Origin: a virus
Lineage: Duplodnaviria > Caudoviricetes
DNA length: 64,000 nt
IMG/VR virus record: IMGVR_UViG_3300021363_000005
Location: 1,711 to 65,710 of that record
Direction: 5' to 3' (one strand)
In this document: positions 13,701-55,560 of the stretch, piece by piece
Layout: the number at the start of each line of letters is the position of its first letter
Position numbering within the stretch: position 1 is the first letter of the stretch
Notes under the pieces: generated by a model
What the model saw: the letters and a program-made list of their open reading frames with translations, nothing else
Database searches by the model: none
Told to the model about the DNA's origin: nothing
Position numbers and translations under genes: made by a program

Positions 13701-16700
13701 TGCGCCGTGAAGCGGGGCATGCTCAGCGTGAGCTGACGCCGACCGAGGCGCGCGAGCTGGCGGCTGCCAAGCTGGCTGAGGAACGCGAGAAAGGAACCGA
13801 GCGGCGTGAACATCTCGGTGAGATACCCAAAGAGGAAGACCTCAACACGCTGGTTGATCAGGCGCTGGGCAAGAAGGAAGGGGCAGCCGCCACGCAGACG
13901 ACGCGCAGCAAGCACACTCAGATGCGCGAGATCATCATCGAGCACAGCATCAACAGCGTACTGAAAAAACATTTCGGCGCGGAACTGGAAAACCTGCGCA
14001 GTATGATGGACCGCTTGCAGATCGGCCTGCCGCCGATCAAGCCTGCCGAGCTCGCAGCGCTCGAAGCGCAAGGCGTCACGGGCGGCCGGAAGTCGCAAGC
14101 CATTCGTGCCGGCAAGCCGGTGGCACCGCGTGAGCTGGTCAGCCGGCCCAAGCGTGGCTCGGCGCTGACCGGCGCTGCCTTGGACCAAGCTGTTGTTAAA
14201 CGGATCATGGAGATTGCCGGCGAACATGTGCCTAAAACGCTTGGCAAGGAGCAGGCGGCGGCGCTCAAGGTCGACCCTGCCCGCTTCGGTCTGCGGCTCG
14301 AGGCTGAGGAAAAGCCGCGTGGCACACGTGAGAGTTTTAAGGCTCTGCGTGAGGAGCATGAGAGCGCGCTGATCGATTGGCAGAACAAGGTGTTCGACCA
14401 GATCACGGCAGGCTACGAACTGAAGCCGGTCCTTGAAGAGATCATCGCGACGGCCAAGAGAATTACCGCTGAACAGCGCCAGCAGCGCGGCATCACCGGT
14501 CAGTCGATCAAGACGTGGATCCCCAACGGGCGTGATGCCCGCACCGCCGATGGTCGCATCTTCAAGAAGTACAATGCCGGCCACGCCGAGGAGAAGGCGA
14601 CGCACTTCAACATGCTGGCCGACATCATGAATGCTGACGAGCAGATCAGGCTGGCGCAGGCGGCGGCACCGACGGTCGATGCCTTCGACCACATGCGAGC
14701 GCCTGACGTGCAGCGTGTCATCGGCCAGCTCATTCCCGAACTCGGCAAGCTGGGCAGCGACTGGCGGCTCTATGAAGGCGGCATGGCCAAGGCGATCAAT
14801 GAGGAGCGTCGGGCCAAGTCGGAAGAAGTCACCGAGCGTATGAAGGGTGTGCGGCCCGCCGAGGGTGGTGACGAGGAAACGCGGGCGGAAATTCCCGAGA
14901 CAGCGCCGTCGGCCGAGGAACAGATGCTGGCGGCCGAGCCCACTTTCGAAACCGAGGGTGACCGACGAGCGCGCGAAAACCGCAACAAGCGCGAATGGCA
15001 GGACATGATCGCCGCGCAGCGGCCCTCGACGCAGGTCAGCGGCGCTCGGGTGGTCGGCACGCGGGCCAAGGGCGCGTTTGAAAAGATACCCAAGACCGAG
15101 GAGTTGCCGCCCGGTGAAGGACGCAAGCTCTCCGGTGCCGAACTCGAGGAAGCCAAGCAGCGTCTGCTGGCCAACCGGCGTAACCGCCCGACTGACGGCC
15201 CGCCGCCCGAGACGGCTGGCGAGTACCGCGCCGAGGTACAGGGCGCACGCGAGGCGCTGGCGACCGACGATCCGCAGCATCCGCTGATCAGCGACCACGA
15301 ACCGGCGGCTGCCTCGCTCGACCGGGCCAAGGACATCATCAAGCGCGGCGAGGCGGGTGACGTTTCTTCCTTCATCACGCCCGAGTTCATTGACAAATTG
15401 TCAACGGTCAATGCGGGCGTGCGTGTCCTGCATGCGCCGGTCGAGGTGGTGGCCGGTGAGCGCGGCGAGGGTCAGGCATTCTACCAGCCCGACAAGGACC
15501 GTATCGTCCTCAGCAACAACGTGAGCAGCGGCGACTACGTCAAGAACGTGGTGCACGAGCATGTCCACGCCGCGACCGAGCACCTGCTGGACAGCGACGC
15601 CGCCTTCCGCAGTGAGGTCGAGGACCTGCGGCAGCGCGCCGAGGCGCATGCCAAGCAGGCGGGCGTCACCAACCAGCGCCTGCTCTATGGCCTGCGCGAC
15701 CCGCACGAGTTTCTGTCGGAGAGCCAGTCCAACCCTGAGTTCCGCGCCATGCTGGGCCGTGCGTCGGCTCCCAGCCGGGGTGTCATTCAGGGGGCCAAGA
15801 ACGTCATCAACGCGCTCTACCGCAGCATTCGTGACGCATGGCGCAGGGTGGTCGGCGAGAAGGATGGCGACACCGCGCTCGACGTGCTGTTCCGCGATAC
15901 CTCCTCGGTGCTGGGCCGCACCGACAAGCTGGTCGCCAAGACACTTGACCGGCTGGCCATGGAAGGGCGGCAGCCCGGTGGCACGGCGGAGGGCCGGCGT
16001 TATAGCCCGCTGACCGACAAGGTTGCTGCGACGGCGTCACGGGTCGGCAAGGACGCGTGGTCGGCCGTCGCGCAGTCGCCCAAGTTCGACATCGGCATGT
16101 CGCTGCACTCGACGATGGATCTTGCCCGGCGTGGCGTGAAGGATTTTCAGGGCCATGCGCTCAAGGTGGCGCAGGTCATGGCGCGCAAGGCGACCGAGCG
16201 CGGCCGCATCATTAAGGAACAGGATCAGCCCAAGCTGCTGCGCACTGCGAAGTGGCTGAACGGCCTGAACAAGGACATGCGGATCAAGGTCGAAAAGTTC
16301 TTGACCGACGAGACGATGCATGGCGCGCACGCCGATGTGGCGTTGAACGATCCGAAGAACAAGCACATCAGCCTGTTCGAGCCGTTCAACGAGGCAGGGC
16401 CCAAGCCGTGGGCGCTGCGCGACGCGCAGGTCCATCGCATGCATGAGGGCATGCGCGAGCGCTACAACGAGCTGACGCAGGTGCCGGGCTTCGTCGAGAA
16501 CCGCGCTGCGCTGCATAAGTTCTTTGCCGACCGTGAGACCGAAATTCGGCACGAGGTGACCAAGGCGCTGACCGAGCATCTCGGCATCCTACCGGCGTCT
16601 GCCGACACGCCCCGACTGAAGGCTGCCGCCATCGAGGTCATCCAGAAGCACATCTTGAACGAGAAGATGGACGTCGGGGAGAAGCAGCGACTGGAAGCGA

Positions 16701-22848: not shown

Positions 22849-22862
22849 GGGTCTCTCCTGTT

Positions 22863-25829
22863 TTACTCGACGTTGAGGAACCTTGCGTTCTCCGGCTTCG
22901 ACAGGTCGAACTCCCAGACATACTCACGGGCGGGCGGATTTTTCAGTTCAGTGCCGGCACCAAGTGAGCGTTGATTTTTCGGTCGCGTGCAGAAGCCTGC
23001 TTTGAGCAGCACGCGCCTCATGTGATGGAAGTCTTGGTCACTCTTGCGGCACGCACTTTCTATCTGCGGCTCGCTTAGCAGCATTATTTTTTCGCTGGTG
23101 GCGATGCGCCCAACATAGGGCGGTTTCAAATCATACAGCTGATTTTTGATCTGTTCCTTGGTGTGCGGGTTCGTACCCTGCCTTGCGATGCCGTTCGTCA
23201 CGATCATGTTGCTGATCCGCTCGTTGACGAAAGTGCTGATGCGGTTCAGGGCAACTTGTGGATCGTCGGCATCAACAGCTGCTTCGCTCAACGTCATGCG
23301 TTGGTGACGGAATTGATCGAACAGGAACTTCTTCATTGACATGATGTCAAAGTCGAGCAGGTTGAGGTGCTTGGCTATGGTCGCGCCAAGATAGATCGCG
23401 ACGATGGTGGCCAGCCAGAAGCGCTCGCTCTCGACAGCATTAAGCTCCTTTTGAAACTCTTGTGTGCACAGCACGACCGCTTGATCGACGTTGCCGTAGT
23501 GCTGGTTGAGATAGTCGGCATAGACTGTTCCGGCGGTGCCATGGTTACTTTCCAGCAGGCGTTTGATGATCACTACTCGATCCAGTGTCAGGCCGAGTTT
23601 GGTGATGGCGTTGGACAGCTCGATCTCGACAACGCGCAACGCCTGCGCCGTCGTCTCTCGACTAGTCTTTTGCACCAGTGAGAAATTTCCTGCCGTGGTC
23701 AGCAGTAATTGGGAATAGCGCTGCGGCTTGCGGGTAGCGTTGCGGGTAAGCCGACGGTGATCCTTAGCCCCCGTGATGTTGAGCACCATCTCGCCGACCT
23801 TGCTGAAATTACTGCGTGCGTCGACCACGAACTCATCGGCATAGACCGGCAGGTTGTGTATCATCGCGATGTATTCTCTGGTATCGGCCGGAGTGCCGCT
23901 GCCCAGTACGGCGCGCATCGACGCCCACACGCTGCAGGCAATTTCCAGCGACGCTGTTTTTCCCCTGCCACTCGGTGCCCGGGCGTGGACGATGCCACCG
24001 TCGACACCAGTAAACCGCATCAGGGGCGAGGCGAACGCCGTGGCGATCAACACTTCCATTTCGATGCAGCCCTTGTCGACGAAGAAGCTGGCACCCTTTT
24101 TCCACTCGCTGAGTTCACCGCACGACTGATACTCCGGTGCTGAGTTGCGGCCGCCATAGGCGAAGCCTTGAATGTTGCCGTCCTTCTCAAGCCAACCCAT
24201 GCGACTGACCGACAGGCCATCACGCCGCTGTTGGACCAACGTGACCCATGCCGTCATGTACGGTTTCACCTGTTTGAAGTTCGAGTACATCAGACCGTTG
24301 CCGAAGCAGTGCTCGGCAAAGCTCTGATCTGATTTAAGCGAGCCTAGCGGTACGAAAAATGTTTTCTTGTCATCGAAGCCCTGAGTACCGCGAGCGATGC
24401 AAAACTCTATTCTAACCGGAAGCTCAGCCGTGCCGTCGAGATAGGTCATGCTGTAGACCGGCGTCAGAAAGACCGGGTTGTTTTCGCCATCGGTAATGAG
24501 ATGGTCCGGCGTGTGGATGAAGCCGGGCGGCAGAAAGATCGGCTCGTCTGCCAGCGGCAGGAGGTGGGTCATTACCGGCCCCGCATGACCGTTCACGCTG
24601 CCGTTCATGTGGGTGCGGGTCGGCGTGCCGCTGCCCGACAGACCGCGCGTGGCGTAGTTGATCGGCGACTGACCCTGACCGTTGAACTGGCAGGTCCGGC
24701 AGATCGCCGCCGCTGCTGTGCTGGCGCGGGCGATGGTGGCGCATGCCGGCCAGCCCTGCGGCTGGGCTATGTCGAACTTGGCGTCGGTCTGCTCGGGGTC
24801 GTAGCGCCCATCGTCGCTCGACAGATCGTGGAAATAATCTCGACCGTCCTGCACGTAGTGGCAGAGCTTGGCGAGCTCGAACCACAGCGGCTCGAGGTCT
24901 CCACTGCCGCCACGTCGTTCGCTATCTGCAACAACTGGGCAAGCTCCTCGAAGCAGCTCGATGGAGGTGACGATACGAGAATGGTCAAGACTGGCGAGCG
25001 CACGATTAGCCTCCGCTCCCCGAATTGGCGGGCGTGGTGGCAGGACGGCAGGGTCGATCACGGCGGCGCGCGGCGGGTGGCTAACTCCGGAGGTTAGCGG
25101 GAACCCGCTCAGCGCCGTCGTGACCTCGGCCAAGGTCATCGTCTCGCCAAGGCTTAAAACCTTACATTCCTTGGGGTTATTTGGGTCCTTGCGATTGAAG
25201 CTGCCCGGCAGGCGCAGCAGGGTGACCGAGTTGCGCGTGACGCCATGATCGAATTTCAGCCCGTGCTGGGTAGCCGCCTCGATCAGCCGGTCAGCCAGCG
25301 GCTGCCAGACGGCGCGCGTGATCGGCTGATCGAGCACGATGTAGGCGTGGATGCCGTGCCCGGTGCTGACGATGGGCCCCGGTCGGATCCCGATCTTGTC
25401 AAAAAACGGTAGCAGGGCGGCCAGCGCGGCCCCCTGAGAGGCGTAACCTTTGTCCTTAACGTCTAGGTCCAGCACCAACGAACGCAACCAGCGGGCATTT
25501 GTGGCCTTCCTGTCGCCCTTGCTGAGCTTGCGGTTGCCACGCCCGTCAGTCTGGCCGGTGTAACCCTGCCCGGAGAGACAGAAAAATACCTGCGCTTGAA
25601 TGTGGTTTAGGAAGCCGGTGAAGTTCTGCAGCTGGCCGTACTCGTCCATGCCGCCGAAGGCGCGGCCGCCGCCCCGGTACGGCATCGCCAGATTGCCGCC
25701 GAAGGCGTGGATATTCACAAAACTGTCAGGTGGATTTGCGACACTCCACGGCACCACCCGGCCCAGAAACTGGGCCAGCGGGTCGGGAATGTATGTGCCG
25801 TTGCCGAACGGCGTCTCGTTGCCCCCCAC
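22863..25829 (-). CDS. primase-helicase (AEP/RepB-like primase plus DUF927-type P-loop domain)
   Basis: LVLDLDVK, STGHGIHAY, LLRLPGSFN primase motifs; Cys cluster; APSGRGKT Walker A and YADE Walker B. Confidence 0.85.
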   Translation of the reverse strand: MGGNETPFGNGTYIPDPLAQFLGRVVPWSVANPPDSFVNIHAFGGNLAMPYRGGGRAFGGMDEYGQLQNFTGFLNHIQAQVFFCLSGQGYTGQTDGRGNRKLSKGDRKATNARWLRSLVLDLDVKDKGYASQGAALAALLPFFDKIGIRPGPIVSTGHGIHAYIVLDQPITRAVWQPLADRLIEAATQHGLKFDHGVTRNSVTLLRLPGSFNRKDPNNPKECKVLSLGETMTLAEVTTALSGFPLTSGVSHPPRAAVIDPAVLPPRPPIRGAEANRALASLDHSRIVTSIELLRGACPVVADSERRGGSGDLEPLWFELAKLCHYVQDGRDYFHDLSSDDGRYDPEQTDAKFDIAQPQGWPACATIARASTAAAAICRTCQFNGQGQSPINYATRGLSGSGTPTRTHMNGSVNGHAGPVMTHLLPLADEPIFLPPGFIHTPDHLITDGENNPVFLTPVYSMTYLDGTAELPVRIEFCIARGTQGFDDKKTFFVPLGSLKSDQSFAEHCFGNGLMYSNFKQVKPYMTAWVTLVQQRRDGLSVSRMGWLEKDGNIQGFAYGGRNSAPEYQSCGELSEWKKGASFFVDKGCIEMEVLIATAFASPLMRFTGVDGGIVHARAPSGRGKTASLEIACSVWASMRAVLGSGTPADTREYIAMIHNLPVYADEFVVDARSNFSKVGEMVLNITGAKDHRRLTRNATRKPQRYSQLLLTTAGNFSLVQKTSRETTAQALRVVEIELSNAITKLGLTLDRVVIIKRLLESNHGTAGTVYADYLNQHYGNVDQAVVLCTQEFQKELNAVESERFWLATIVAIYLGATIAKHLNLLDFDIMSMKKFLFDQFRHQRMTLSEAAVDADDPQVALNRISTFVNERISNMIVTNGIARQGTNPHTKEQIKNQLYDLKPPYVGRIATSEKIMLLSEPQIESACRKSDQDFHHMRRVLLKAGFCTRPKNQRSLGAGTELKNPPAREYVWEFDLSKPENARFLNVE

Positions 25830-27624: not shown

Positions 27625-27647
27625 TTTATCTCTCCTGTTCTACGACA

Positions 27648-29586: not shown

Positions 29587-29614
29587 TTTTAAGTTCTTTC
29601 CTCTTGACATCATG

Positions 29615-29803
29615 TCAAAGAAAGCTTGCCTGCCACTCCCTGATGTAATCCTGCAGATCGACCTTTTCGTCTTCCCGCAGGTTTTCGAAGTCGGCGTTGC
29701 AATGGAGCAGATCGGCGGCGATCATCGCCTCGTCGCCGTCCATGTCGTAGCCATTTTCAGTCGCCGTGTTCAGAGCCACAAAGACCCGCTCTCTTAAATT
29801 CAT
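29615..29803 (-). CDS. small hypothetical protein
   Basis: GGAGG RBS supplied by motif B; stop lies inside motif A. Confidence 0.55.
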   Translation of the reverse strand: MNLRERVFVALNTATENGYDMDGDEAMIAADLLHCNADFENLREDEKVDLQDYIREWQASFL

Positions 29804-29981: not shown

Positions 29982-30718
29982 AGGTGACCCTTTCCCCAAT
30001 ACTCGCAGCTGGTCACACCGCAGTGCTTTTTGCACAGACCGGACGGGCGCGGCGGAAAGTCGTTGTTGCGCACCGCCTTCTGCAGGCCGCCGGCGAGGTC
30101 GTAAATCTGCGGCAGGAACTCCGCCATTTCGCGTCGCGTCACTATAAAATCTGTAGCAACACCTTCGTTCAGGTAGATGTATTTGTTGTTCAGCGTGTGG
30201 ATGGTGGGGAAGTGCAGGAAGACCAGCAGGGCGGTGAGCTTGAGCTGGAAGTTGGGCGGCAGCAGTTCGTAGCGTGGGTCCTTCTCGGCTCCGGTCTTCC
30301 AGTCGATGCTGCGCCCGAGCGGTGCATCGAGCACCAGCACGTCGGCTTGCGCTCGCAGCCATACCTTTTCTTTGCGCGAAAAATACTCGCAGGGTTTCAG
30401 CTCGTAAGTGCAGGCGAGGCGGTGCTCGACGAAAACCTGCTGGGTGGGCGGACCTTGCTTCATCGTCGTCGCCCAGTCGGCGTAGCGGGCGTACTCGGGG
30501 GGCAGCGGGGTGCCCTTGGCGATGAAGTCGGCCATCGCCTTGTGGACCCTAAACCCCTCTTTCATCTGCGGGCTCTCGGGTTCCTTGATCGTCTTGGCAA
30601 TATCGTAGTGATAGAACTTGCGGGCGCAGTTGGTGAACTTGTCGAGGGCGGAGAAGCTCCAATGACGACGCTCGACGACCGGGTTGCCGTGAACGTCAGT
30701 GCGGTTGAGGCTGTCCAT
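29978..30718 (-). CDS. PD-(D/E)XK (Cas4/RecB-like) exonuclease
   Basis: WSFSALDKFTNC, G..VH, E..L, ADVL..IDWKTG, QL, C-terminal C..C..C cluster. Confidence 0.85.
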   Translation of the reverse strand: MDSLNRTDVHGNPVVERRHWSFSALDKFTNCARKFYHYDIAKTIKEPESPQMKEGFRVHKAMADFIAKGTPLPPEYARYADWATTMKQGPPTQQVFVEHRLACTYELKPCEYFSRKEKVWLRAQADVLVLDAPLGRSIDWKTGAEKDPRYELLPPNFQLKLTALLVFLHFPTIHTLNNKYIYLNEGVATDFIVTRREMAEFLPQIYDLAGGLQKAVRNNDFPPRPSGLCKKHCGVTSCEYWGKGHL

Positions 30719-30935
30719 CCTGCTCTCCTATAAAGCGGCGAATGCAATGCTTGATGTCGCGCCGCTGATTGTCGAGCACCCGGCCCCGTAGACCTGACAC
30801 GGTGACGATGATCCTGCCACTAGGTCGATGTCGAAACCGCAGGTGGCTCTTCGATGTCATGCCGAGATATTCCAGATTGAACTCGGTAGCGAGCTCTTGG
30901 ATCTCGCGTTGCGATTTCAAACCATGTTTAGCCAT
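30696..30935 (-). CDS. HicA-like small protein
   Basis: TSKSHLRFRH..GRIIVTVS resembles the HicA dsRBD-like pattern. Confidence 0.4.
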   Translation of the reverse strand: MAKHGLKSQREIQELATEFNLEYLGMTSKSHLRFRHRPSGRIIVTVSGLRGRVLDNQRRDIKHCIRRFIGEQDGQPQPH

Positions 30936-31596
30936 GCTTTGCTCCTAGTTCTCGCAGCGCCGCTTCGCGCGCGAGATTGAGATCGAGCAGACGATACTCG
31001 TTGCTCGGGTCTTTCTTGGCCAAGGTTCGGTAGTTGAGGTTGACGTCTTCAACGGTGACGCGGCTGTCGGGCCGGAAGCCCAGCGTGGCCCGCCATGCCG
31101 GGCGGTTGTCGTCGCTCGGTGGTGGCAGCGCGTCGTAGCCGGCGAACGCCTGTTCCATGGTGCCGACGCCGTAGCGGTCGACCCGGCGGATGGCGTCGAT
31201 ATGAGCGGCAAGGGCTGCGATGTTCTCGGCCACGCTGAGCCAGCGGTCGCAGGCCAGCACGCGATCCTTGCCCTGCAGCTTGAAGTAGACGGCGGCCCCG
31301 GGGTCGCTCGGCTCGGCGCGGCCGCCCTTGGGCAGCCCGTAGATGGTGGGCTCGACATTGGTCGAGAGGATGGGGTCGCTGCCGCCCAGCCGCTCGATCT
31401 GGTCGAGCAGGCGCGTGCAGGCGGTCGGCACGGTGACGCGCTTGGTGCCTTTGCCGGTGATGATCTTCTGGCCTTCGCCGGTCCACTGCTTGCGCTCGAC
31501 CATGGTGGCCTCGCTGAACGCCGAACGCGAACGGTCATCGGCTGGCGTGCGCCGCCAGCCGAATGGCCACGAGAGGGGGTAGTGATTGGGGTCCAT
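30928..31596 (-). CDS. phage protein with degenerate C-terminal J-domain-like region
   Basis: YPLSWP.GW.RT..ILSTN..DPGAAVYF..ACDRW family pattern; C-terminus W..LG..YRTLAKK..LNLAREAA. Confidence 0.65.
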   Translation of the reverse strand: MDPNHYPLSWPFGWRRTPADDRSRSAFSEATMVERKQWTGEGQKIITGKGTKRVTVPTACTRLLDQIERLGGSDPILSTNVEPTIYGLPKGGRAEPSDPGAAVYFKLQGKDRVLACDRWLSVAENIAALAAHIDAIRRVDRYGVGTMEQAFAGYDALPPPSDDNRPAWRATLGFRPDSRVTVEDVNLNYRTLAKKDPSNEYRLLDLNLAREAALRELGAKHG

Positions 31597-31640
31597 ACCA
31601 TCATAATACCATTCTCTTGACATATGTCAAGAGGGAACTA

Positions 31641-31925
31641 CTACATGTAGCCCATTTCATCGAGGATCATCTGCTTGGCGCATTCTAACAGCGCAAGAAT
31701 TTCCGATCCCTTCACGCCGGCTGCGTTGTAGCCGACGTCGAAACAGTCTCTACCGTCGACATCTGTCGTCTTGAGGCGCAGTACGAGCAGCTTCTCGCAC
31801 GGCGTGCGCCCCGCCTCGATGTCGCTGATGCAGTCGCGCAGGCACTCGACGGGTGTCCATAGCCGATTGTCACGCGTCTTGAGCGCCCGCACGGCACCGA
31901 GGGACGTGACTTGGTCGTCAGTCAT
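31641..31925 (-). CDS. hypothetical protein
   Basis: AAGGGGG RBS, ATGA overlap. Confidence 0.55.
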   Translation of the reverse strand: MTDDQVTSLGAVRALKTRDNRLWTPVECLRDCISDIEAGRTPCEKLLVLRLKTTDVDGRDCFDVGYNAAGVKGSEILALLECAKQMILDEMGYM

Positions 31926-32320
31926 GCCGGTGTCCCCCTTCGTACGTTCTTCGACGCGTACATCACCGCCGTCGCTGCCTTCACGGCATGCATGCAGGCG
32001 GTCTCGCTTTCGCTGATGGCGATGGCGGCGTTGCGTGCCCCGTCGTCGATGGCGTGCCACATCGTCGACGCCGGCACATCTTCGGGCAGGCCGTCCTGCG
32101 GTAAAAACGGCTTAGGCCGGTCTCGCATTTTCTCGCAAGCGGTGATGAACGCCGCTGCCATCAGGTGCAGGTGGCCGACCTCGCTCAGATGGTCGGGATT
32201 GAACCCGGCGCGCACGCGGCGCAGCGCCGTCTCACTCACTTCCACCATCAGGTGGACGGTACGCGATTGCACTGCCTTCTGATACTCGTTGGGTTCCTCG
32301 TACTGCAGCATCGTCGACAT
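31922..32320 (-). CDS. Acb2/Tad1-like helical-hairpin protein (candidate cyclic-nucleotide sponge)
   Basis: GAGGAGG RBS; RVRAGFNP..EV..AAAFI..RNAAIAISESETACMHAVKAAT resembles the Acb2/Tad1 hairpin family. Confidence 0.5.
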   Translation of the reverse strand: MSTMLQYEEPNEYQKAVQSRTVHLMVEVSETALRRVRAGFNPDHLSEVGHLHLMAAAFITACEKMRDRPKPFLPQDGLPEDVPASTMWHAIDDGARNAAIAISESETACMHAVKAATAVMYASKNVRRGTPA

Positions 32321-32522
32321 TTTTAGCCTCCTCATAAAGTAGTTGCATTCTAAGTAGTAGTCCCGGGTGCAAAAGCAACTTGCCCCGCATGATCTTGTTG
32401 ATCGTATCGCGCCGTACGTGCAGGCGCTTGGCCGCCGCCATGATCCAGTGGTCGCCGAACAGCCGGCGACCCAGCGAGGCGAACACTGCAACCTCCACCG
32501 TCAGGCGGGCAGGCTCCCGCAT
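32232..32522 (-). CDS. Cro/XRE-like HTH protein
   Basis: GRRLFGDHWIMAAAKRLHVRRDTINKIMRG HTH-like segment; coupled to the endolysin stop. Confidence 0.5.
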   Translation of the reverse strand: MREPARLTVEVAVFASLGRRLFGDHWIMAAAKRLHVRRDTINKIMRGKLLLHPGLLLRMQLLYEEAKNVDDAAVRGTQRVSEGSAIAYRPPDGGSE

Positions 32523-33091
32523 CAGGCGATGCCGGTCGTCGTCGAACTCCCGTTGATGGTCAGACACTGCATGCGCGGCGCGGTACTGGGCGGAATGGCA
32601 CGACCGACATGGACCCAGCTGTTGTTCTCGTAGATCAGCTGGTCGATGCCCAGCTCGGCCATGTGCGGCTCGATGGCTTTGCAAACCGCCTTGACGTTGC
32701 CGAAACCGGGGACGGTGAAATCGGCGGCGCAACCATAGAGGTGCGCCGAATTGCTGGCACCGCCGATGGCCGTGTTGAGTTGCTTGCAGCGGAAGCCTGA
32801 CGAGATGATGACGGGTTGGTTCTTGCAGATCGAGCGGATGCCTTCGAGTGTGTCGTTGGCGAGATTGCTGAGTTGCTCGGTCGCGTTGGCATCTGGTGTG
32901 TTGTCGATGCCCTGCATCGCTGCAGTGTCGCTGGCCGTCAGTTCGGCCAAGGTAAAGTGGGGAGAGATATTGCCGGGTGGTAGGATTTCGATGGGTTTGT
33001 CGATCAGGTTAATGGCGGACTGCGCCATCTCGGCGTTGGTGGCTTTCAGCGAGTTCAACCAGCTGAGAACCTGTTCTTGCGTCTGTGCCAT
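32522..33091 (-). CDS. endolysin, peptidase M15A family
   Basis: SPHFTLAEL, IISSGFRC..N..IGGASNSAH..G.AADF, DQLIYE..WVHV. Confidence 0.9.
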   Translation of the reverse strand: MAQTQEQVLSWLNSLKATNAEMAQSAINLIDKPIEILPPGNISPHFTLAELTASDTAAMQGIDNTPDANATEQLSNLANDTLEGIRSICKNQPVIISSGFRCKQLNTAIGGASNSAHLYGCAADFTVPGFGNVKAVCKAIEPHMAELGIDQLIYENNSWVHVGRAIPPSTAPRMQCLTINGSSTTTGIA

Positions 33092-33138
33092 GGAAGCCCC
33101 CTTTAGAGGAGCTGCTACCTTGACATCATGTCAAAGAC

Positions 33139-33232
33139 AAAAAAAGGGCTACCCGGCAGGGTAAGCACACCGGGTAGCCCTCGTAGCGGTTGGTCTCAAA
33201 CAGGAGAGTGAAAGACCAAACCCCCTCTAGCA
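33139..33232 (-). ncRNA. candidate two-hairpin sRNA with anti-Shine-Dalgarno loop, ending in an intrinsic terminator
   Basis: Stems 33188-33222 and 33145-33181 followed by U7; putative promoter TTGCCA-17-TATGTA at 33267-33239. Confidence 0.45.
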
Positions 33233-33269
33233 CCGTGGTACATAGGGAAGCTCTGCGCGATTGGCAACC

Positions 33270-35192
33270 TCACTTGGTCTCGCCGTAGCGGACGCCGACG
33301 CCGATGTCACACGCCAGCGGGATCGTCGGCATCCATGTCGGGGGCCGGTTCATCTCCAATTCGGCCCAAATCTTTGCTGTTTCAATGTGCTGGATGGGCA
33401 CCCGGTAGACCAGCTCGTCATGGGCCGAGTGGACCAGCCGTGCGCCCAGCCCGGCCATCGGGTTGCGCAGCCGGACCGCCGCCGACATGACGATGCAGCG
33501 GCAGCAGTGCTGGGCGATGGTCTCGAGCAGCGAGGCTCCGTAGGTGCGCCGCTGCTTGCGCCCGTCGCGGAACCACCAGTTGCCCATGCCGTCTTCCTCT
33601 TGGACGTAGCGCAGCTCGGGGAAGTGGATCGGCAGGCCGGTCGGCCCGACCATCAGGTTCTTGTAGAAGGTCACGCACTTCTTCACCAAGCCTTCGCCCT
33701 GACCAAACTCGGGCAGCGAGTGCATGATCTGCAAAATGTGGTCGAGCTCGCGCCACGTGAAGACGATACGACGGAAACGTCCCCGGTATTTTTGCACGAC
33801 GTCGATGGACTGCTCGTCGGTCAACTGGATCGGAGTATCGGTCTTGGCGCTCAGGATAAAAACGGTGTGCTGGAATTTCAGCCAGCCGCAGGCATAGCCC
33901 AATTGTAGAATGCCGGTCTTGCCGACGAACCGTTCCAGCTTGTCGAGGCTGGTGATCAGGCGGGCGAATACAGTGCTCGCGAAGTCGGCGTAGACGTCAC
34001 GTCCCTCGCGGAATGCCTGCACGAGATCTTCCTGCCCGCAGAACTCAGCCGTGAAGCGGGCCTCGATCTGCTTGGCATCAACGGTCAACAGCAAGTAGCC
34101 GTCGTCGCAGTAAATGGCGTCACGCAGCACGCTGTCACGTCCAAGGTTCTGCACGTTCATTTCCCACGCACCGCCGAAGCGATGGGTGTGCGCAGCACCG
34201 ATGACCACCGGCATGGGCATGATGCAGGTGCCGAGTTTGGGGAACTCTAGGTCGGCGATCTTGAGGAAGCGCGTCGTGCGCGTTTCCTCTTGGGTTGACT
34301 TGGTTTCGAGCCGCGCCTCGACCACCGTACGCACCATGACGTTGGGATGTTCCTGCAAGGCAAGGAAATCCTCGTCGCTCTTGGCGAAGGCGTAGGTCTC
34401 CTGCTGGGTGCGGCCGGATATTTTGGTGGGCGGCGTCACTCCCAGCATGCGCAGCACGTCGGCCAGCTTGGGGTTGCTCATGAGGTCGGCCTTGGTGACA
34501 CCCATCGCCTCGACCTGCGCCAGTGCCAGCGCCTTCTGCTGCTGGACCGTAACCAGATGGTTGGCCAGCATCTGCTTGTCGACGCGCAGTAGGGGCTCGG
34601 TGGTGCAGCGGGTGACGATGTCGTGCAGGATGAACTCGTCGGGTGGCATCTTGTCGAACAGGCGCAGGTAGATCTCGCGACAGAGCCACGTGTCGTGCAG
34701 GCAGTATTCGACCTCGCGATCCCACAGCCCAGCGGCGATGATGTCGGCCCGGGTCATACCCTTCACTTCCTTGATCAGCGATCCCTTGGCCGGCAGGCCG
34801 AAGTAAGCAGCGACGCTGTCGAGAGAGTGTGACGCCAGCTTTGAACCCAGCATGGTGCGCGTCATGGCGATGGTGTCGACGATCAGGTCCGGGCTGAAGT
34901 CGTAGACCCACGACAGGATCGACATGTCGAACTGAGCGTTGTGGCTGACCATGACGATGGGCTGCTGGGTCTCGATGCGATGGCGTTTTATTTTGTGGAT
35001 GAAGTGGGGGATCTCTGGTCCATCGATCAGGATGGGATCGCCCGTGATGCCCGCTACCCCTAGGCAGATCGACTCATAACGGGGGTCCAGAATGTATTCG
35101 GCGGGCGACATGCGGCGCAGGGAATACTCTGTGGAATAGTGACTTTCAAAATCGCAAAATAGCCCGATAACCTCCGGAGTTATCATGGTCAT
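33270..35192 (-). CDS. polA: DNA polymerase family A with N-terminal 3'-5' exonuclease
   Basis: CDFES/HNAQFD/YCLHD exonuclease motifs; DAKQIEAR (A), RFVGKTGILQLGY (B), HDE (C). Confidence 0.92.
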   Translation of the reverse strand: MTMITPEVIGLFCDFESHYSTEYSLRRMSPAEYILDPRYESICLGVAGITGDPILIDGPEIPHFIHKIKRHRIETQQPIVMVSHNAQFDMSILSWVYDFSPDLIVDTIAMTRTMLGSKLASHSLDSVAAYFGLPAKGSLIKEVKGMTRADIIAAGLWDREVEYCLHDTWLCREIYLRLFDKMPPDEFILHDIVTRCTTEPLLRVDKQMLANHLVTVQQQKALALAQVEAMGVTKADLMSNPKLADVLRMLGVTPPTKISGRTQQETYAFAKSDEDFLALQEHPNVMVRTVVEARLETKSTQEETRTTRFLKIADLEFPKLGTCIMPMPVVIGAAHTHRFGGAWEMNVQNLGRDSVLRDAIYCDDGYLLLTVDAKQIEARFTAEFCGQEDLVQAFREGRDVYADFASTVFARLITSLDKLERFVGKTGILQLGYACGWLKFQHTVFILSAKTDTPIQLTDEQSIDVVQKYRGRFRRIVFTWRELDHILQIMHSLPEFGQGEGLVKKCVTFYKNLMVGPTGLPIHFPELRYVQEEDGMGNWWFRDGRKQRRTYGASLLETIAQHCCRCIVMSAAVRLRNPMAGLGARLVHSAHDELVYRVPIQHIETAKIWAELEMNRPPTWMPTIPLACDIGVGVRYGETK

Positions 35193-35599
35193 CGCCTTGG
35201 AATTAGTAGTTGGCCTTCGGACCACCCATTGTAGCGGCGAGTGGCTACGGTGAAATAAGACAGACCAGCTTTATCGGCAGCTTCTGCCAGCGGCAGCCGT
35301 CCCCATTTCGTGTTTATAAATACGTTGGTGCGCATGTTGTTTGCTTGCTGTTTAGGGGTCACCCACCGGCAGTTGCTCGGTTCATAGTTACCGTAAGTAT
35401 CAATGCGGTCGATGGTCAACCCATTCTTCCAAGTCGATCCCATGTCTTCCCAGACTAAATTAAATACTTTCCATTTGTCGCAAACATGAATACCTCTCGC
35501 TCCGTATTTACGCCAGCCATCAACATTGGGGTTGTTGCATCGGCTTCTCATACAACGCCACGAAATATAAGCAGGGTGATGTTGCATTTTATGTGGCAT
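35189..35599 (-). CDS. HNH homing-endonuclease-like protein
   Basis: SW..M..RC.NPN..YGARGI.VC..W..TIDRID..GNYEPSNCRW..QANN; locally AT-rich. Confidence 0.85.
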   Translation of the reverse strand: MPHKMQHHPAYISWRCMRSRCNNPNVDGWRKYGARGIHVCDKWKVFNLVWEDMGSTWKNGLTIDRIDTYGNYEPSNCRWVTPKQQANNMRTNVFINTKWGRLPLAEAADKAGLSYFTVATRRYNGWSEGQLLIPRR

Positions 35600-35622
35600 A
35601 TGAAACTTCCGTAGCTAGAGAC

Positions 35623-35650
35623 AAAAAAAAGGCGACCCCGAAGGGCCGCC
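35623..35650 (-). terminator. intrinsic terminator
   Basis: GGCGGCCC-TTCG-GGGTCGCC followed by T8 on the - strand. Confidence 0.85.
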
Positions 35651-35655
35651 CGATA

Positions 35656-35967
35656 CTAGTCCATCCTGCAGATTTCCCAATCGCCATCCTCGTCCATGAC
35701 CATCACCCATGCATGGGGGAACAGCAGAATGCGTTCGTCGCGGAACATCAGCGCGCTCAGCGGTTCGAGTGGTGGGTCCGAGCCCGTCTCGTCGCCGTAG
35801 GTGAGCTGTCGTTTCTCTGGATCCCACGTGAAGCCATCGAATTTCCGCCAGCCGTAATGGGCGTCGAGTTGTTCGATGGCCGAGCGCGGGTCGTCGGTGT
35901 CGAGGAATGAAATGATCAGTCCCCAGTCATCGAGGTTCCCCCCGATGACGACTAAAGGTAAGGTCAT
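35656..35967 (-). CDS. hypothetical protein
   Basis: AAGGAG RBS abutting motif A. Confidence 0.65.
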   Translation of the reverse strand: MTLPLVVIGGNLDDWGLIISFLDTDDPRSAIEQLDAHYGWRKFDGFTWDPEKRQLTYGDETGSDPPLEPLSALMFRDERILLFPHAWVMVMDEDGDWEICRMD

Positions 35968-36079
35968 TGCTTTCTCCTTGACATGATGTCAGTGCGTGGC
36001 TCCGTTCGATGAAGGCAGTTTAAGCAGACTTCTACTGCACCACGCGGCTGTCCATACGGCCTCCCTAATTAGACCCTAA

Positions 36080-36616
36080 TTAGGACCTCACCCGACGACG
36101 CGCTGCGGGTGCGTCGCTGGCCGGAGCGGGCTCACGCTCCGGTTCGGCCGGGGCGGCCGGCTGCGCCGGCTCGTCTTCCGGCTTGGGATCGGGCGGCAAA
36201 GCCAGTGCCTCGCGCACTGCACCCTCAACCGCCAGCATGCCCTTGCTCTTGGGCTTGATCACCCGCTTCTTCACCGGCACCCCGATGTCGATGCGCGTGC
36301 CGTCCTTGAGGCTCGCCAGCAGGATCACAAAGCCATCTGAGAAGATCACGCAGTCGGCGTAGGGACGGTGCTTCAACGTCACCTTCACGTTGCACTTGCC
36401 TTCCCATGCCCCGGCGGAATGCGCGGGTAGGCCCTTCTCGAAGCGGACCTGCTTGATAACCGCCTCGATGGTGCCACGGCAGCAGACGAGCTTGGCGTCT
36501 CTTACTGTGGCGGGGTAGTACCCCTTCATGTTTCCCATGTCGGGAATTTTCTGGACGACCAGACGTTCGGTCTTAGTTGCCAGTCGGTGTGGTACGTGGA
36601 TGCTACCTTCACACAT
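36080..36616 (-). CDS. hypothetical protein
   Basis: GAGGT RBS, 178-aa ORF. Confidence 0.6.
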   Translation of the reverse strand: MCEGSIHVPHRLATKTERLVVQKIPDMGNMKGYYPATVRDAKLVCCRGTIEAVIKQVRFEKGLPAHSAGAWEGKCNVKVTLKHRPYADCVIFSDGFVILLASLKDGTRIDIGVPVKKRVIKPKSKGMLAVEGAVREALALPPDPKPEDEPAQPAAPAEPEREPAPASDAPAARRRVRS

Positions 36617-38307: not shown

Positions 38308-38372
38308 TGCCTTTACCTCTGAGTTTGAGTTGTACTATACGCACTTCCCACTTGACATGATGTCAAGTGGTC

Positions 38373-39387: not shown

Positions 39388-39789
39388 TTACTCCGAAGCG
39401 AATTGTTGCATCAGCCGGTCGAGCTGCTCGCGGGTCAGCACGTAGACGTCCATGTCTTGGCTGCGCAAAAGCCTCAGCATGCCAATGACGTCTTTGTCGT
39501 TGGCCGTGGTTGCATCGTCGAACATCAGGCTGGGGTACTTGGCCATCAGCATCTTGCCCAAGGTGACGACCTGACGGGCGGTCTGCTGGGCGACGGCATA
39601 CAGCGGTCCACCCAACTGGTCTTCTTCGACCGGCAGCTTGAGACGCACTGCGATAGAAGGCAGGCCGCTTGCCATGCCGCTGTCCAGCACGTTCACATCC
39701 TCAAGCACGCCGCAGTCGAGGAAGTTGCCGCGCCATGGCGGCGGATCGTCCTTGCCGATAAAGCGAACTTTCATTGGAACCATGTTCAC
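39388..39789 (-). CDS. hypothetical protein
   Basis: AAACAGGAG RBS. Confidence 0.6.
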   Translation of the reverse strand: MNMVPMKVRFIGKDDPPPWRGNFLDCGVLEDVNVLDSGMASGLPSIAVRLKLPVEEDQLGGPLYAVAQQTARQVVTLGKMLMAKYPSLMFDDATTANDKDVIGMLRLLRSQDMDVYVLTREQLDRLMQQFASE

Positions 39790-41228
39790 TCCTGTTTGCT
39801 AGGTTTGACGACGTAGTCCTTACGCACCCAGCCGAGGCTGGGATCGCCCCGAATGTGCTCGGGGATCAGGCGACTATAGGCCATGCACTTGCCGCACAGC
39901 CGATAGCCCTCGTCGTAGTCGTAAGTCCATTCGTGCTCGTCGCGCCTACACTGCACATCGTGGTGCAGGTAATTACGCCAGTGCTGCATCACTTCATGAG
40001 CGCGCCGCCGCGTAGCCGTGCGGAACTGCCGCTCGATGTACTGCACCGGCTTTTCTTTGGGCACCCGCAGGACAAGGCGATGGTAGTCCATCTTCGCCCG
40101 CCGCCCGGTCAGCCCGGTGCGGATCGTCCCGGCGGGCTGCACGTGGTGGCTATCGATGGGCACTTCGTTCAGGCAGGCAAGAACGGTGACGATCCAGCGC
40201 ATCATGCCGGTGAACTCGGTGGTCTCTTGCACCATCAGGCTGGCGATGGTGTCGAACACCACCTTGTCTCCCGCCGATGCGACGAACGTCTCCATGACTT
40301 GCCGCATGCGCCCGGTGCCCAACACGCCATGGCGCATCAGGAACTCGGGCAGACGCAGCTCTTTCATCTGCGTCATCTTCTCGATCATCGTGCTGCGGCC
40401 GCCCGCCGAGTAGCCCCACAACGATGCCGGCCCCAACTGCTGCAGCATGTATATTTCATTCTCGGACATTTCCAGAATACGGGCGGCGGCATCGGGTTGG
40501 TCGAGTGCCACGAACGGACGGCAGCCGGTGCCTTTGCCATCCTGTCCGGAAAACGCATACTCGCGCACGCTGAAGAAATAGCAGATCGTCGTGCCGATCA
40601 GGCCGTGCGCACCGAACGTCTCGCACACCATCTCGACCACCGCCTCGGTGTTGCTGAGACGGCGGATGATCAGGCCGAGGCGGTCGGCAACCTCGTCCCA
40701 GTTGAACTTGCTGTTGTCCGCGTTGTGCAGCTCGCGCATGACCTCGACCTTGGTCTTAAGGTCGAACTCGATCCACGTGATGTCGTATGGCAAGGTGGCG
40801 TATTGCAGACGGGTCAGCAGCTTCTCGGGTTTGGTGGTCGTCGACACTTCCGTGGCGTAGCGCACGAAGTCGTTGTCGAGCACGAAGCGGTGGGCCTTCA
40901 GCATGTCCTGCCGGTACGACCGCAGGATCGGCTCGATCTCCTTGGCTTGATGCCGGTTGAGACTGAGCCGCTTGGGCAGGGTGTAGGTCTCGGCGACGAA
41001 GAGGTCGGCAAGGCTTGCTTCATCCTTGTCGCGCATGACCTTGTCGACCGCTTTGACGGCGGCCGGATGGCCCGCCATCAGGGCTTCGCTGAAGTCGACG
41101 GCCGACGAGCGGCCGCCGCTTGGTGATGGTATCGTACCCGCCGGCAGCTTGATGGTGCCAGACTTCAGGATCCGTCTGATTTCGGGATGCCGTCTTTGCG
41201 CGGCTTGCCGTCCTTTGTATTTCGCCAT
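39786..41228 (-). CDS. 480-aa hypothetical protein with C-terminal R.H.V..HWR motif
   Basis: RRAHEVMQHWR...IPEHIRGDPSLG; RBS adjacent to motif B. Confidence 0.65.
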   Translation of the reverse strand: MAKYKGRQAAQRRHPEIRRILKSGTIKLPAGTIPSPSGGRSSAVDFSEALMAGHPAAVKAVDKVMRDKDEASLADLFVAETYTLPKRLSLNRHQAKEIEPILRSYRQDMLKAHRFVLDNDFVRYATEVSTTTKPEKLLTRLQYATLPYDITWIEFDLKTKVEVMRELHNADNSKFNWDEVADRLGLIIRRLSNTEAVVEMVCETFGAHGLIGTTICYFFSVREYAFSGQDGKGTGCRPFVALDQPDAAARILEMSENEIYMLQQLGPASLWGYSAGGRSTMIEKMTQMKELRLPEFLMRHGVLGTGRMRQVMETFVASAGDKVVFDTIASLMVQETTEFTGMMRWIVTVLACLNEVPIDSHHVQPAGTIRTGLTGRRAKMDYHRLVLRVPKEKPVQYIERQFRTATRRRAHEVMQHWRNYLHHDVQCRRDEHEWTYDYDEGYRLCGKCMAYSRLIPEHIRGDPSLGWVRKDYVVKPSKQE

Positions 41229-41545: not shown

Positions 41546-41572
41546 GATACTCTCCTGTTAACATAATGTCAA
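41544..41572 (-). promoter_or_regulatory. sigma70-like promoter whose -35 is an arm of motif A
   Basis: TTGACA (41572-41567) - 17 bp - TATCAT (41549-41544). Confidence 0.5.
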
Positions 41573-42658: not shown

Positions 42659-43126
42659 TTAATCCTCCAGCTTTTTGGCATGCTCGAGGATCGTCTCGGC
42701 AAACAGGATGGCGTTCTGTTTGGGCATGCCGACCCATGCAATGCTCTTGCCGAAGTCGATGACGACCGTCTTGCCGCTCGGATGGATGCCGATGCCGATG
42801 CGCAGCGCACCCTCGTCATTCGCACCCAACTTGCCTTCGGGAAACTCGCCGGTCGGTCCGAGCTTGGCTGACATGGTGTCAAGCCCGCACTTGATCTTGA
42901 GCGAGCGCGGATCGTCCGGCCGTCCCGCCGTGGTGACGGCGACGCGCTGTTTGCAGACGCTACACGTCACAAGGAAATGTCCGCAGCGTTTGGCCGGATA
43001 GGGCAATAGGGTGGTGCAGGTCGGCGTCGCTCCCTCGGTCGCATCGACGTCGATACCCTCGGGATAGTCCGGATCGGGCGGGTTCTGCGGCTCGCGATTG
43101 CCATCAATCCACTCGACATTCAACAT
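42659..43126 (-). CDS. hypothetical protein, apparent fusion of two small domains
   Basis: GGAGG RBS inside motif B; Cys-rich N-half, then motif A encoding LDTMS, then GPTGEFPEG..DEG domain. Confidence 0.55.
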   Translation of the reverse strand: MLNVEWIDGNREPQNPPDPDYPEGIDVDATEGATPTCTTLLPYPAKRCGHFLVTCSVCKQRVAVTTAGRPDDPRSLKIKCGLDTMSAKLGPTGEFPEGKLGANDEGALRIGIGIHPSGKTVVIDFGKSIAWVGMPKQNAILFAETILEHAKKLED

Positions 43127-49075: not shown

Positions 49076-49215
49076 TCAGCTCTCCTGTTTACTTGACATG
49101 ATGTCAGATGGAGTGGTGCAAAGTCCATGGCGTCAAAAGCAATACACGGCACATCGACGTGCGCCACTACGGGGGAGTGGGAGCGCACGTCGATGGCCAT
49201 TGGCATCACCTCCTT

Positions 49216-54106: not shown

Positions 54107-55560
54107 ATGATCCGCATCACCGCCCCCCACTTCGTTGCCGGTGTCGTCATCACCTGCGGTCGGGTCGGCCGGCGTGCCCGCATCCTCGACTACATGATCG
54201 GCTGGACCGCCCAGCAGGTCATCGATTATGTCGAGAAGAAACACTGGCGTTACGAGCTGCTGCCATGACCGCCCCCAGCCCCCCTACGCGCGACGAAACC
54301 CTCGCTCTCCTGCTGCGCGCCCGTGACCTGCTCGATGCGGCCGAGGTTCCGAGCGACGGCCGATTGATCTGGCCGTTCGACTATGAAATGCTCTCTGTTC
54401 CGCACGAACAGGAGAGTGCCATGACAGACCCCGCGCCCGGCTATCCCGTCGCTGCCAACCCGGTCCCCGCCGTTCCCGCCGTGCAGGCCGTCCCGCTCAC
54501 CCCGGCCGAGCAGGAGCAGGTCGACATGCTCTACGACGAACTCAAGCCGGCGGCCACCGAGAGTGCGCGCGCCTACGTGCTGGCGCGCACCCCGGCCAGC
54601 CTGCAGGTCGCCATGAACGAGAAGATCGACGCCGACTGGCCGGCACCCGAGCCGCCCACCGAGGATGTGCTGGCCGCCCGACGCGAGGACGCCATGTCGG
54701 GTTTCCGCACCGCTTCGGTGACGCTGTCGCAAACTGCACCGGTCGCCGACCCGCCGGTCGGCCAGACCTACCCGGCGCAGTTCCAGCCGCTGCGCTGAAA
54801 CCATGACGACGCCGGCCCAAGAGACCACCGAGCTGTTCGCCACCTTGCAGCCGTTGGCGCTTGCCGACTACGTGACCTACATCATGTCGCGCACCCGCGC
54901 CGACTTGCAGGCCCTGATGGCTCCACTGGCGGCTGGCGACCCAATGCCTGCCCCGCCGCTGCCGGCCAATCAGGTGATCGTCAGTTCCGGTGATGCCATC
55001 CCGGTCAAGGACGGCAGCAAGACGGTCAACGCGCCCGCCACCGTGGCGGGCGGCGTGCTCACCGGCGCTCAATTGGGTTCGACCACGACCATGGTGGCCA
55101 ACGCGGCTGCCGTGGTCGTCCACAATCTCGCGGATGCCAATCAGGCGGGCTCGCCCGGCACCGCCACGGTGGCGGCCGGTGTGCTCAGCAAGGTCAATCT
55201 TACCGTGTGATCCCGCAGATGCAGACTCTACTTTGTAGGATCACACTGGTATGAACTACGCGCTCGTGCTCTCGGCGCTCGAGAAGCACGCGCGCATGGC
55301 CCAAGCTGCTGTGAACTTTGCGCGGGAAAAGGGTAGAGGAAAGCTTTTCAGCGAGGCGATGATGGTGCTGACGGAGGCCGAGCTGGCGCTACTCCATGTC
55401 CAGAAAGAACAACAAGCTGCGCAGCGTGATGCACTTCACCGCTGACTTCCTGACCGTGCTCGCCTGTTTCAGCCTGCTCTTGCTGGCGCTTTGTCTCGAC
55501 ATCATAATCACGGTCGTGCGTCGTCGACGCGGCCGTAGCATCAAGGTGACGCCCCTTTAA
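54107..55560 (+). other. cluster of small hypothetical genes (54107-54268, 54265/54421-54798, 54803-55210, 55251-55445, 55429-55560)
   Basis: Consecutive coupled ORFs on the + strand. Confidence 0.5.

Follow-up and report, generated by a model that had tools for sequence, protein, structure and literature searches.

In the window analysed here (a stretch of 64,000 nucleotides (nt) comprising bases 1711-65710 of the 65.7-kb virus record IMGVR_UViG_3300021363_000005, a member of the Caudoviricetes rated 100% complete), the minus-strand gene polA, encoding a family A DNA polymerase, is followed by a gene for an endolysin-like M15 peptidase. Between the two, on the same strand, lies a short element consisting of a putative promoter, a hairpin and an intrinsic terminator. 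An earlier note on this DNA had read this element as the gene of a small RNA (sRNA) with an anti-Shine-Dalgarno (anti-SD) loop. Since the loop is the exact complement of an exceptionally long ribosome-binding site (RBS) common to several phage genes, the element may encode an RNA that shuts off their translation. We compared the element with its counterparts in related phages and examined the RBSs that its loop could address.

Structure of the element

All parts described in the earlier note were found in place between polA and the peptidase gene (Table 1). The promoter, given there as TTGCCA-17-TATGTA, is present and is equivalent to the TTGCCA-16-CTATGT used here. The hairpin likewise exists as described, with a loop of 16 nt (33197-33212) if the closing U.G pair is left open and of 14 nt otherwise. 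The terminator does end in a run of seven U residues, while its stem holds 11 canonical pairs instead of the 12 claimed. The 141-nt stretch that we folded has a predicted energy of -54.3 kcal/mol (z = -3.09), and 1/200 shuffled sequences was equally stable.

Conservation among related phages

A search with polA returned many uncultured relatives on contigs of around 60-65 kb. We aligned 41 of these and examined 13 viral and 27 metagenome loci. The element occurs in nine distinct sequences including the window, and is present in all ten loci that have a polA identity of at least 61% and sequence beyond the polA stop codon (L016, 84%; L003, 69%; L027, 66%; L025, 65%; L019, L028 and L030, 64%; L004/G002, 62%; L018, 61%). 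L028 and L030 are identical at the element and were counted once, and L017 ends at the polA stop. The element follows this stop directly in 8/9 copies; in L004/G002 it lies around 900 nt further on, with an extra gene between. A covariance model built from the other eight copies recovers the G002 copy at 46.8 bits (E ~1e-7). With this model, we found no second copy in any genome, and nothing better than E = 0.3 in the relatives with 46-50% polA identity and the whole genomes G003, G004 and G005. A regular-expression scan of six complete genomes agrees with the model.

Searches further afield place the element only in phage and metagenome contigs. In the nearest cultured relatives, Rhizobium phages with a polA 38% identical (including RHph_TM3_14A), the 55 nt after polA are without the element, and a blastn search of 32400-34400 against cultured phages returned no match. 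An exact 26-mer of the hairpin had no match in viral_contigs, and neither had polA when searched there as a single protein. The loose pattern CTATGTA-gap-AGAGGGGG hit at least 119 stretches; among the matches listed, only the record of the complete genome G001 passed a regular expression for the rest of the element. A strict three-part pattern gave three viral matches, two of them unrelated coding sequence, and five in bacterial genomes (Bacteroidales, Pseudomonas putida, Anaerolineae and Eubacterium), which we judged to be chance by taxon alone.

The promoter-like sequences are well kept. In 8/9 copies, a TTGnnn hexamer lies exactly 16 nt upstream of a CTAYRT -10 sequence. The -35 reads TTGCCA twice, TTGCAA three times, and TTGTAA, TTGAAA and TTGCAC once each, with TATGGC in L018; the -10 reads CTATGT in seven copies, CTATAT in L018 and CTACAT in L004/G002. 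In the window, L016 and L027 the -35 lies beyond the polA stop, in L003, L019, L025 and L028 it is contained in the last polA codons, and G002 keeps the promoter despite the gene of around 900 nt separating it from polA. Such persistence of the 16-nt spacing, whether or not the sequence is coding, would be difficult to account for if the promoter were idle. Close to the expected start of the RNA, at a distance of 8-13 nt from the -10, comes a GAGGGGG that is invariant in the eight aligned copies and reads UAUAGGGGG in G002. Coding readings of the element were set aside: a 35-amino acid (aa) minus-strand open reading frame (ORF) at 33126-33233, a 32-aa plus-strand ORF at 33190-33288 and a seven-codon ORF after GAGGGGG are, by eye, not kept in relatives.

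Structure is conserved where sequence is not. Hairpin 1 is formed in every copy from five quite different stem sequences, and the terminator stem is variable in sequence too. In a model-based alignment (A5), 91.2% of cells pair, compared with 80.8% in shuffles, and 11 pairs are changed on both sides, compared with 4.7 (0/500 shuffles reach either value), although these counts lean towards structure because the alignment was fitted to the model and has only nine rows. Controls with the pairing partner slid along reached 34-55%. Hairpin 1 pairs in 84% of cells, with double changes at 4/10 pairs among nine sequences, and the terminator stem in 97%, with double changes at 7/11 pairs. Frequent G-C to G.U exchanges are compatible with the minus strand only.

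Conservation of the loop among relatives had been fixed beforehand as a test, and the outcome was positive: the CUCCUG core is kept in 8/9 copies while the stems covary. Three loop types occur, CUCUCCUG in the window, L016, L003, G002 and L027, CACUCCUG in L019, L025 and L028, and GGACCUGUUCACC in L018. The predicted mean probability of being unpaired is 0.73-0.83 for CUCCUG in the eight copies and for the corresponding GACCUG in L018. Metagenome contigs of the window itself add little. All nine runs listed for positions 30500-36500 are soil-metagenome DNA contigs, none RNA; the four DNA runs compared gave fragmentary contigs, two of which overlap the element (X5, 33150-33397; X6, 32959-33254). 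These show two differences each from the window, every one outside the element, which is too few to be informative on constraint. Taken together, the element is very probably a real, conserved unit of structured RNA.

Two observations touch on its ancestry. In three relatives with 46-48% polA identity (L006, ~6010-6100; L007, ~6010-6095; L020, ~2230-2290), polA is followed by a small Cys-rich ORF that ends in (C/T/A)A(G/A)AGGGGG, and then by a hairpin with other loop sequences. A terminator follows this hairpin in L006 and L007, whereas the L020 sequence stops earlier; with the covariance model, L020 reaches 17 bits (E 0.5). As a weak lead, such a small gene, found behind polA in distant relatives, may have given rise to the sRNA from its 3' end. 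In G002, the place right after polA where other copies have the element (L004 ~5915-5985) holds CUUUCCUGUUAACAGG, a short palindrome containing a loop-like CCUGUU and its complement AACAGG, which may be a remnant or chance.

Ribosome-binding sites complementary to the loop

The sequence AACAGGAGAG occurs six times in the window, where 0.08 copies are expected, and 0/100 shuffled sequences reach this number. Each of the five copies outside the candidate gene is followed, after 4-5 nt, by the ATG of an ORF with 60-249 codons. These are five of the six RBS matches listed in the earlier note (genes starting at 22848, 27624, 41545, 49075 and 54421); for the sixth, a weaker match, the start is at 39783 and not at 39789 as given there. 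The loop is perfectly complementary to the five RBSs over 10-12 nt, and the situation in G002 is alike. The genes predicted as targets are scattered between 22 and 54 kb, on either strand. Co-folding with three targets gains -11.5 to -16.3 kcal/mol.

To compare RBSs more broadly, we used three complete genomes that carry the element (the window, G001 and G002) and three non-carriers with 46-48% polA identity (G003, G004 and G005). AACAGGAGA occurs seven, six and eight times in the carriers, respectively, including one copy each in the sRNA gene itself, and once in each non-carrier; dinucleotide shuffles contain 0.2-0.3 copies (maximum 2-3). AAC precedes the AGGAG of ATG-linked sites in 7/35, 6/27 and 7/18 cases in the carriers, compared with 0/19, 2/31 and 1/23 in the non-carriers. 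Pooled, this is 20/80 vs 3/73 (Fisher p = 2.4e-4, uncorrected for shared ancestry). ACAGGAG is present in one or both partners of nine reciprocal-best orthologue pairs; in 6/9 it is shared by the two, with diverged flanks, and several motif-bearing genes are specific to one genome.

The earlier note had held that pairing should be better than chance, and we examined this with 500 mock loops that keep CUCC but have shuffled flanks, taking the mean of the five best duplex energies. None matched the real loop in the window (0/500) or in G002 (0/500), so that here the expectation holds; in G001 the result is marginal (0.04-0.08): a fraction of 0.076 of the mock loops equals or outdoes the real one, and 0.036 does so when the fifth-best energy is taken. 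For the window and G002, the strongest pairing of the loop is with the genome that encodes it. The exact 9-mer ACAGGAGAG is found in G001 only in the sRNA gene.

A second recurrent class of RBS, (AACT)CCGGAGGTTA, precedes the starts at 43126, 20915, 29803, 41228 and 51413, and also occurs at ~35165-35180 inside the 5' end of polA; the phage thus uses at least two stereotyped extended sites. The earlier note had further suggested that the terminator loop could pair with GGTAAGCA, just before the start at 36616, and this we dropped. The terminator loop differs in every relative, the match is only 8 nt long, with a chance of around 15% by a back-of-envelope estimate, and the sequence upstream of the G001 orthologue of this gene holds, by eye, no complement to G001's own terminator loop.

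Table 1. Positions in the window of the element, its predicted targets and the other features mentioned in the text. Promoter, RNA and target assignments are predictions.
Feature	Position	Strand	Remarks
-35 hexamer TTGCCA	33262..33267	-	Candidate sigma-70-type promoter
Spacer, 16 nt	33261-33246	-	Between -35 and -10
-10 hexamer CTATGT	33240..33245	-	Within conserved block CCTATGTAC
5' motif UAGAGGGGG	33221..33229	-	Conserved; at or just after the predicted RNA start (start predicted, not mapped)
Hairpin 1	33188..33222	-	5' arm 33212-33222, 3' arm 33188-33197; arms GGUUUGGUCUU / GAGACCAACC, one bulged U
Hairpin 1 loop UCACUCUCCUGUUU	33198-33211	-	14 nt
Anti-SD core CUCUCCUGUU	33199..33208	-	In the loop; complement of AACAGGAGAG
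Linker, 7 nt	33187-33181	-	Hairpin 1 to terminator
Intrinsic terminator	33139..33180	-	Stem 33170-33180 / 33146-33156 (GGGCUACCCGG / CCGGGUAGCCC), 13-nt loop UGUGCUUACCCUG
U7 run	33139-33145	-	3' end of terminator
Predicted target RBS AACAGGAGAG(TG)	54407..54416	+	125-aa gene starting 54421; duplex -23.5 kcal/mol; G001 orthologue keeps AACAGGAGA
Predicted target RBS (A)AACAGGAGAG	49080..49089	-	249-aa gene starting 49075; duplex -21.0 kcal/mol; G001 and G002 orthologues keep AACAGGAG
Predicted target RBS AACAGGAGAG(T)	41550..41559	-	65-aa gene starting 41545; duplex -18.0 kcal/mol
Predicted target RBS AACAGGAGAG	27630..27639	-	149-aa gene starting 27624 (phrog_13900); duplex -17.9 kcal/mol; G001 and G002 orthologues keep the motif
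Predicted target RBS (A)AACAGGAGAG	22853..22862	-	60-aa gene starting 22848; duplex -18.1 kcal/mol; G001 orthologue keeps AAACAGGAGA
Weaker predicted target CAAACAGGAG(TGAAC)	39789..39798	-	131-aa gene starting 39783; duplex -16.4 kcal/mol
polA, family A DNA polymerase, 638 aa	33270..35186	-	Pfam DNA_pol_A and 3'-5' exonuclease domains; upstream of the sRNA; stop TGA 33272-33270
Peptidase_M15_3 / endolysin-like gene	32522..33091	-	ATG 33091; downstream of the sRNA
Palindrome TTGACATGATGTCAA	33120..33134		Directly after the terminator; one of ~26 sites in the window
Internal virion and structural proteins	4-8 kb	+
Large terminase	55617-57068	-
Head-tail adaptor	57659-59875	+

Proposed function and alternatives

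These observations suggest how the element could work. Host RNA polymerase would start at TTGCCA-16-CTATGT and stop at the intrinsic terminator, giving a minus-strand RNA of around 90 nt (~33233 to 33139). This RNA would fold into two hairpins, the first displaying CUCUCCUGUU in a loop of 14-16 nt, and the loop could pair over 10-12 contiguous bases with the extended SD sequence AACAGGAGAG of at least five phage mRNAs. Pairing would block binding of the 30S subunit, and translation of the gene set would fall as the RNA accumulates, making it the RNA counterpart of a phage translational repressor protein. We consider the chances about even that the element is an independently transcribed RNA that represses translation in this way.

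A more elaborate version, in which we place rather less trust, is that of a translational timer. In a lineage of soil phages without noticeable lysogeny genes among the ORFs scanned, an early sRNA of around 90 nt, transcribed by the host polymerase, would read an AAC-AGGAG-AG tag around the SD sequences of 5-7 phage genes and switch these off while accumulating. The set of tagged genes would change from one related phage to another, individual genes gaining or losing the tag; the RNA gene itself may derive from a small gene, still present behind polA in more distant relatives, whose 3' end and terminator it would continue. Should repression through the loop prove right, it would be a compact, RNA-only way of timing phage gene expression, the extended SD sequence would be a natural address separating regulated from unregulated genes, and the covariance model would make a new RNA family recognisable in metagenomes. 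Should action in trans prove wrong, a conserved structured RNA of no known family would still stand in a clade of uncultured phages.

Several of our results weigh against repression through the loop. The carriers form one clade, so the co-occurrence of sRNA and extended RBSs is a single evolutionary event and not three. ACAGGAG-type sites are found 4-6 times in relatives lacking the element, ACAGGAG itself (3-5 sites each) is the most frequent form in the non-carriers, and AC is there too the most frequent dinucleotide ahead of AGGAG, which means that part of the motif predates the sRNA. Besides its marginal result against mock loops, the G001 loop has no pairing advantage in its own genome over that of the window, and the G001 sites read AACAGGAGAA (...GAGAA), with nine pairs instead of at least ten. 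We saw no covariation between loop and sites, other RBS types are also often kept between orthologues, and the gene starts and RBS counts rest on a crude ORF caller. In L018, which retains both hairpin and 5' motif, the loop is without CUCC. Finally, the conserved 5' UAGAGGGGG is not explained by a trans-acting repressor; no targets for it were found in the window, where matches with at most one mismatch number three, compared with 7.4 expected.

The conserved 5' motif would find a place if the unit acted in cis, as a terminated leader or antitermination site. A short RNA from a constitutive promoter would then end at the terminator unless the polymerase is made termination-resistant by a phage factor or the RNA itself, with motif and loop as binding sites (nut-like, or pR'/6S-like) that control read-through into the downstream genes. 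The unit does lie inside a block of co-directional genes, the next RBS comes 9-45 nt after the U-run with no sigma-70 promoter between, the same small ORF (MDY..LVL) lies downstream in 6/9 copies, and known antitermination sites are built likewise, from a conserved linear motif and, after it, a hairpin whose loop is conserved. We nevertheless think this explanation unlikely. The downstream gene is of three kinds across the copies, the downstream genes in the window serve replication (exonuclease, helicase, primase) and form no late block, and a strong promoter-like site at 31630-31603 could serve them. The Q antiterminator models PF03589 and PF06530 had no match at E <= 0.1 in the 65.7-kb record, a weak argument, as divergent or unrelated antiterminators are possible, and a cis-acting site leaves the complementarity of the loop to an over-represented RBS 10-mer unexplained. 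Alternatively, the RNA could act in trans but mainly on mRNAs of the host, as a phage copy of the anti-SD strategy of host sRNAs, the phage sites being secondary. Any CUCC loop can pair with SD sequences, the nearest cultured relatives infect Rhizobium, the alphaproteobacterial AbcR1 is reported to use single-stranded anti-SD modules on many mRNAs (PMC4152367), and the G001 loop is not clearly tuned to its own genome. Against this, it is phage sites that match the loop over the longer stretch of 10-12 nt, enrichment of the AAC extension is confined to sRNA-bearing genomes, and the bacterial matches to the strict pattern were all dismissed by taxon; a mainly host-directed RNA is in our view improbable.

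The anti-SD likeness would be a by-product if the loop were kept for pairing with the 5' AGGGG, in a pseudoknot or alternative fold, and the RNA did something else, such as binding a protein. RNAalifold on a MAFFT alignment indeed pairs AGGGG with CUCCU (five pairs, each in 7-8/8 sequences), and both motifs are conserved. This pairing, however, overlaps the base of hairpin 1, with no room for the linker that a pseudoknot needs; its two sides hardly vary and hence show no covariation; L018 has the 5' motif without CUCCU; and the loop motif is unpaired in thermodynamic ensembles. Neither the conserved GUU flank nor the enrichment in RBSs would be explained, and there is little probability in such an arrangement. 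Least probable of all, to the point that we would be surprised by it, is that the element is just where the polA operon ends, a 3' untranslated stretch closed by a terminator and having neither promoter nor function of its own. Its position directly after the polA stop in 8/9 copies, with a strong terminator at the end, is what one would expect of such an end. Yet the -35/-10 pair is kept at fixed 16-nt spacing in coding and non-coding contexts, the loop and 5' motif are kept while the stems change, the G002 unit is intact though another gene separates it from polA, and both the relatives with 46-50% identity and Rhizobium phage RHph_TM3_14A end polA without the element.

Genomic context and neighbouring features

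Beyond the M15 peptidase gene, the minus strand carries genes for an exonuclease, an endonuclease-like ORF, a helicase, phrog_13900, an uncharacterised ORF and a primase/helicase. With replication genes downstream, the element lies inside a replication block and not at an early/late border. The gene following the element varies, being the M15 peptidase in the window and L016, the small ORF starting MDY..LVL in 6/9 copies and, in L003, a different ORF. No integrase or immunity context was noticed among the 28 ORFs of the window that we compared with PHROGs. The window has no tRNA genes.

The best match to a sigma-70-type promoter in the region is at 31603-31630 on the minus strand (TTGACA-16-TATTAT with a TG extension, 11/12 positions). 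It is located 1.5 kb downstream of the sRNA, and the exonuclease, helicase and primase genes come after it. The leader of the M15 peptidase gene holds GCUCCUCUAAAGGGGGC (33095-33113, minus strand; also L016 ~2990-3010), which, as read from the sequence, could form a 6-bp hairpin masking the gene's own G-rich SD sequence. On the other side, an HNH endonuclease gene (35189-35599, minus strand) directly adjoins the start of polA, with a strong terminator-like hairpin (35630-35651) just upstream of it. Among the virion genes, a giant ORF of 2892 aa (10745-19423, plus strand) has a sole match, to phrog_37402 of unknown function, in its last ~700 residues.

The palindrome directly after the terminator belongs to a large family. 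Allowing up to three mismatches, the 15-bp TTGACATNATGTCAA has 59 strand-wise matches in the window compared with 0.9 expected (e.g. 33120-33134, 29604-29618, 35978-35992, 38352-38366, 49093-49107, 50606-50620 and 23336-23350). In the stricter form TGAC[AT]NNN[AT]GTCA, it occurs 26 times in the window, 19 times in G001 and not at all in G002-G005. Of the 26, 18 lie outside called genes, and many have a start codon 1-50 nt further on, with the SD sequence coming right after the palindrome. This is too close to the ATG for a sigma-70 promoter of the adjacent gene; the palindrome may serve as an operator or 'stoperator'-like site, or may form a hairpin in RNA. It also follows the terminator in L016 and L028/L030 and is absent from G002, which has the sRNA, and is probably not part of the sRNA.

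Comparison with known systems

A search of the whole window with Rfam 15 at gathering thresholds returned no match, the AbcR/alpha-r15, cuckoo-type and C4 antisense models included as far as the release has them. In E-value mode over 33050-33350, the best hit was ftsZ-DE at 21.7 bits, compared with a threshold of 72.2, and all others had at most 15 bits. The element does have the generic features of a trans-acting sRNA, namely a promoter of its own (as judged from sequence and positional conservation), a Rho-independent terminator and a conserved seed predicted to be single-stranded. The trans-acting phage sRNAs known so far belong largely to prophages in enteric bacteria and have host genes as targets. 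Literature searches brought up, within the library and terms used, no paper on a phage sRNA with an anti-SD loop directed against a set of the phage's own RBSs.

The earlier note had likened the element to the AbcR and cuckoo-type sRNAs. AbcR RNAs are encoded by a chromosomal gene in Rhizobiales and target ABC-transporter mRNAs of the host, and the cuckoo or alpha-r14-type RNAs are alphaproteobacterial anti-SD sRNAs. AbcR1 is reported to address many mRNAs through two single-stranded anti-SD modules, M1 and M2 (PMC4152367). The element resembles such RNAs in its predicted promoter, its intrinsic terminator and a C/U-rich anti-SD motif, predicted to be single-stranded, that would face several mRNA initiation regions. 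Unlike AbcR1, it is phage-encoded and has a single anti-SD loop (no other is evident by inspection of the aligned copies) of different sequence, and the targets predicted for it are genes of the phage itself that bear the extended site AAC...AG and not the SD core alone. Membership of the AbcR or cuckoo families finds no support; the resemblance is one of mechanism and not of homology.

Among phage systems, the C4 RNA of the temperate phages P1 and P7 acts in lysogenic immunity through loop-to-RBS pairing, and is cut by RNase P processing from the leader of the operon that it controls. This antisense RNA is reported to block icd/ant expression (PMC8198154). The element shares with C4 that it is phage-encoded and has a loop complementary to the phage's own mRNA sites, including RBSs, but differs in its separate, conserved promoter (predicted), in having 5-7 dispersed genes as predicted targets and in lacking an Rfam match. 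In the window, its arrangement also recalls the pR'-tR' region at the head of the late operon of lambda, where a 6S leader is subject to Q antitermination, and nut sites: a promoter, a short structured RNA and an intrinsic terminator precede a peptidoglycan hydrolase gene. Unlike there, the downstream genes form no conserved late block, neither of the two Q-family Pfam models matches, and the loop complements phage RBSs, a feature not foreseen by a lambda-type leader.

In its logic, the proposed RNA comes close to RegA of phage T4, a protein translational repressor that binds the RBS regions of a set of phage mRNAs; in both cases one phage factor would turn down a set of phage messages, here by base pairing of an RNA. 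With no Rfam match, one anti-SD loop, a predicted promoter of its own and dispersed predicted targets, the element is best placed with neither the AbcR nor the C4 type. It probably defines a new sRNA family in a clade of uncultured soil phages, with a proposed mechanism of a type that is already known.

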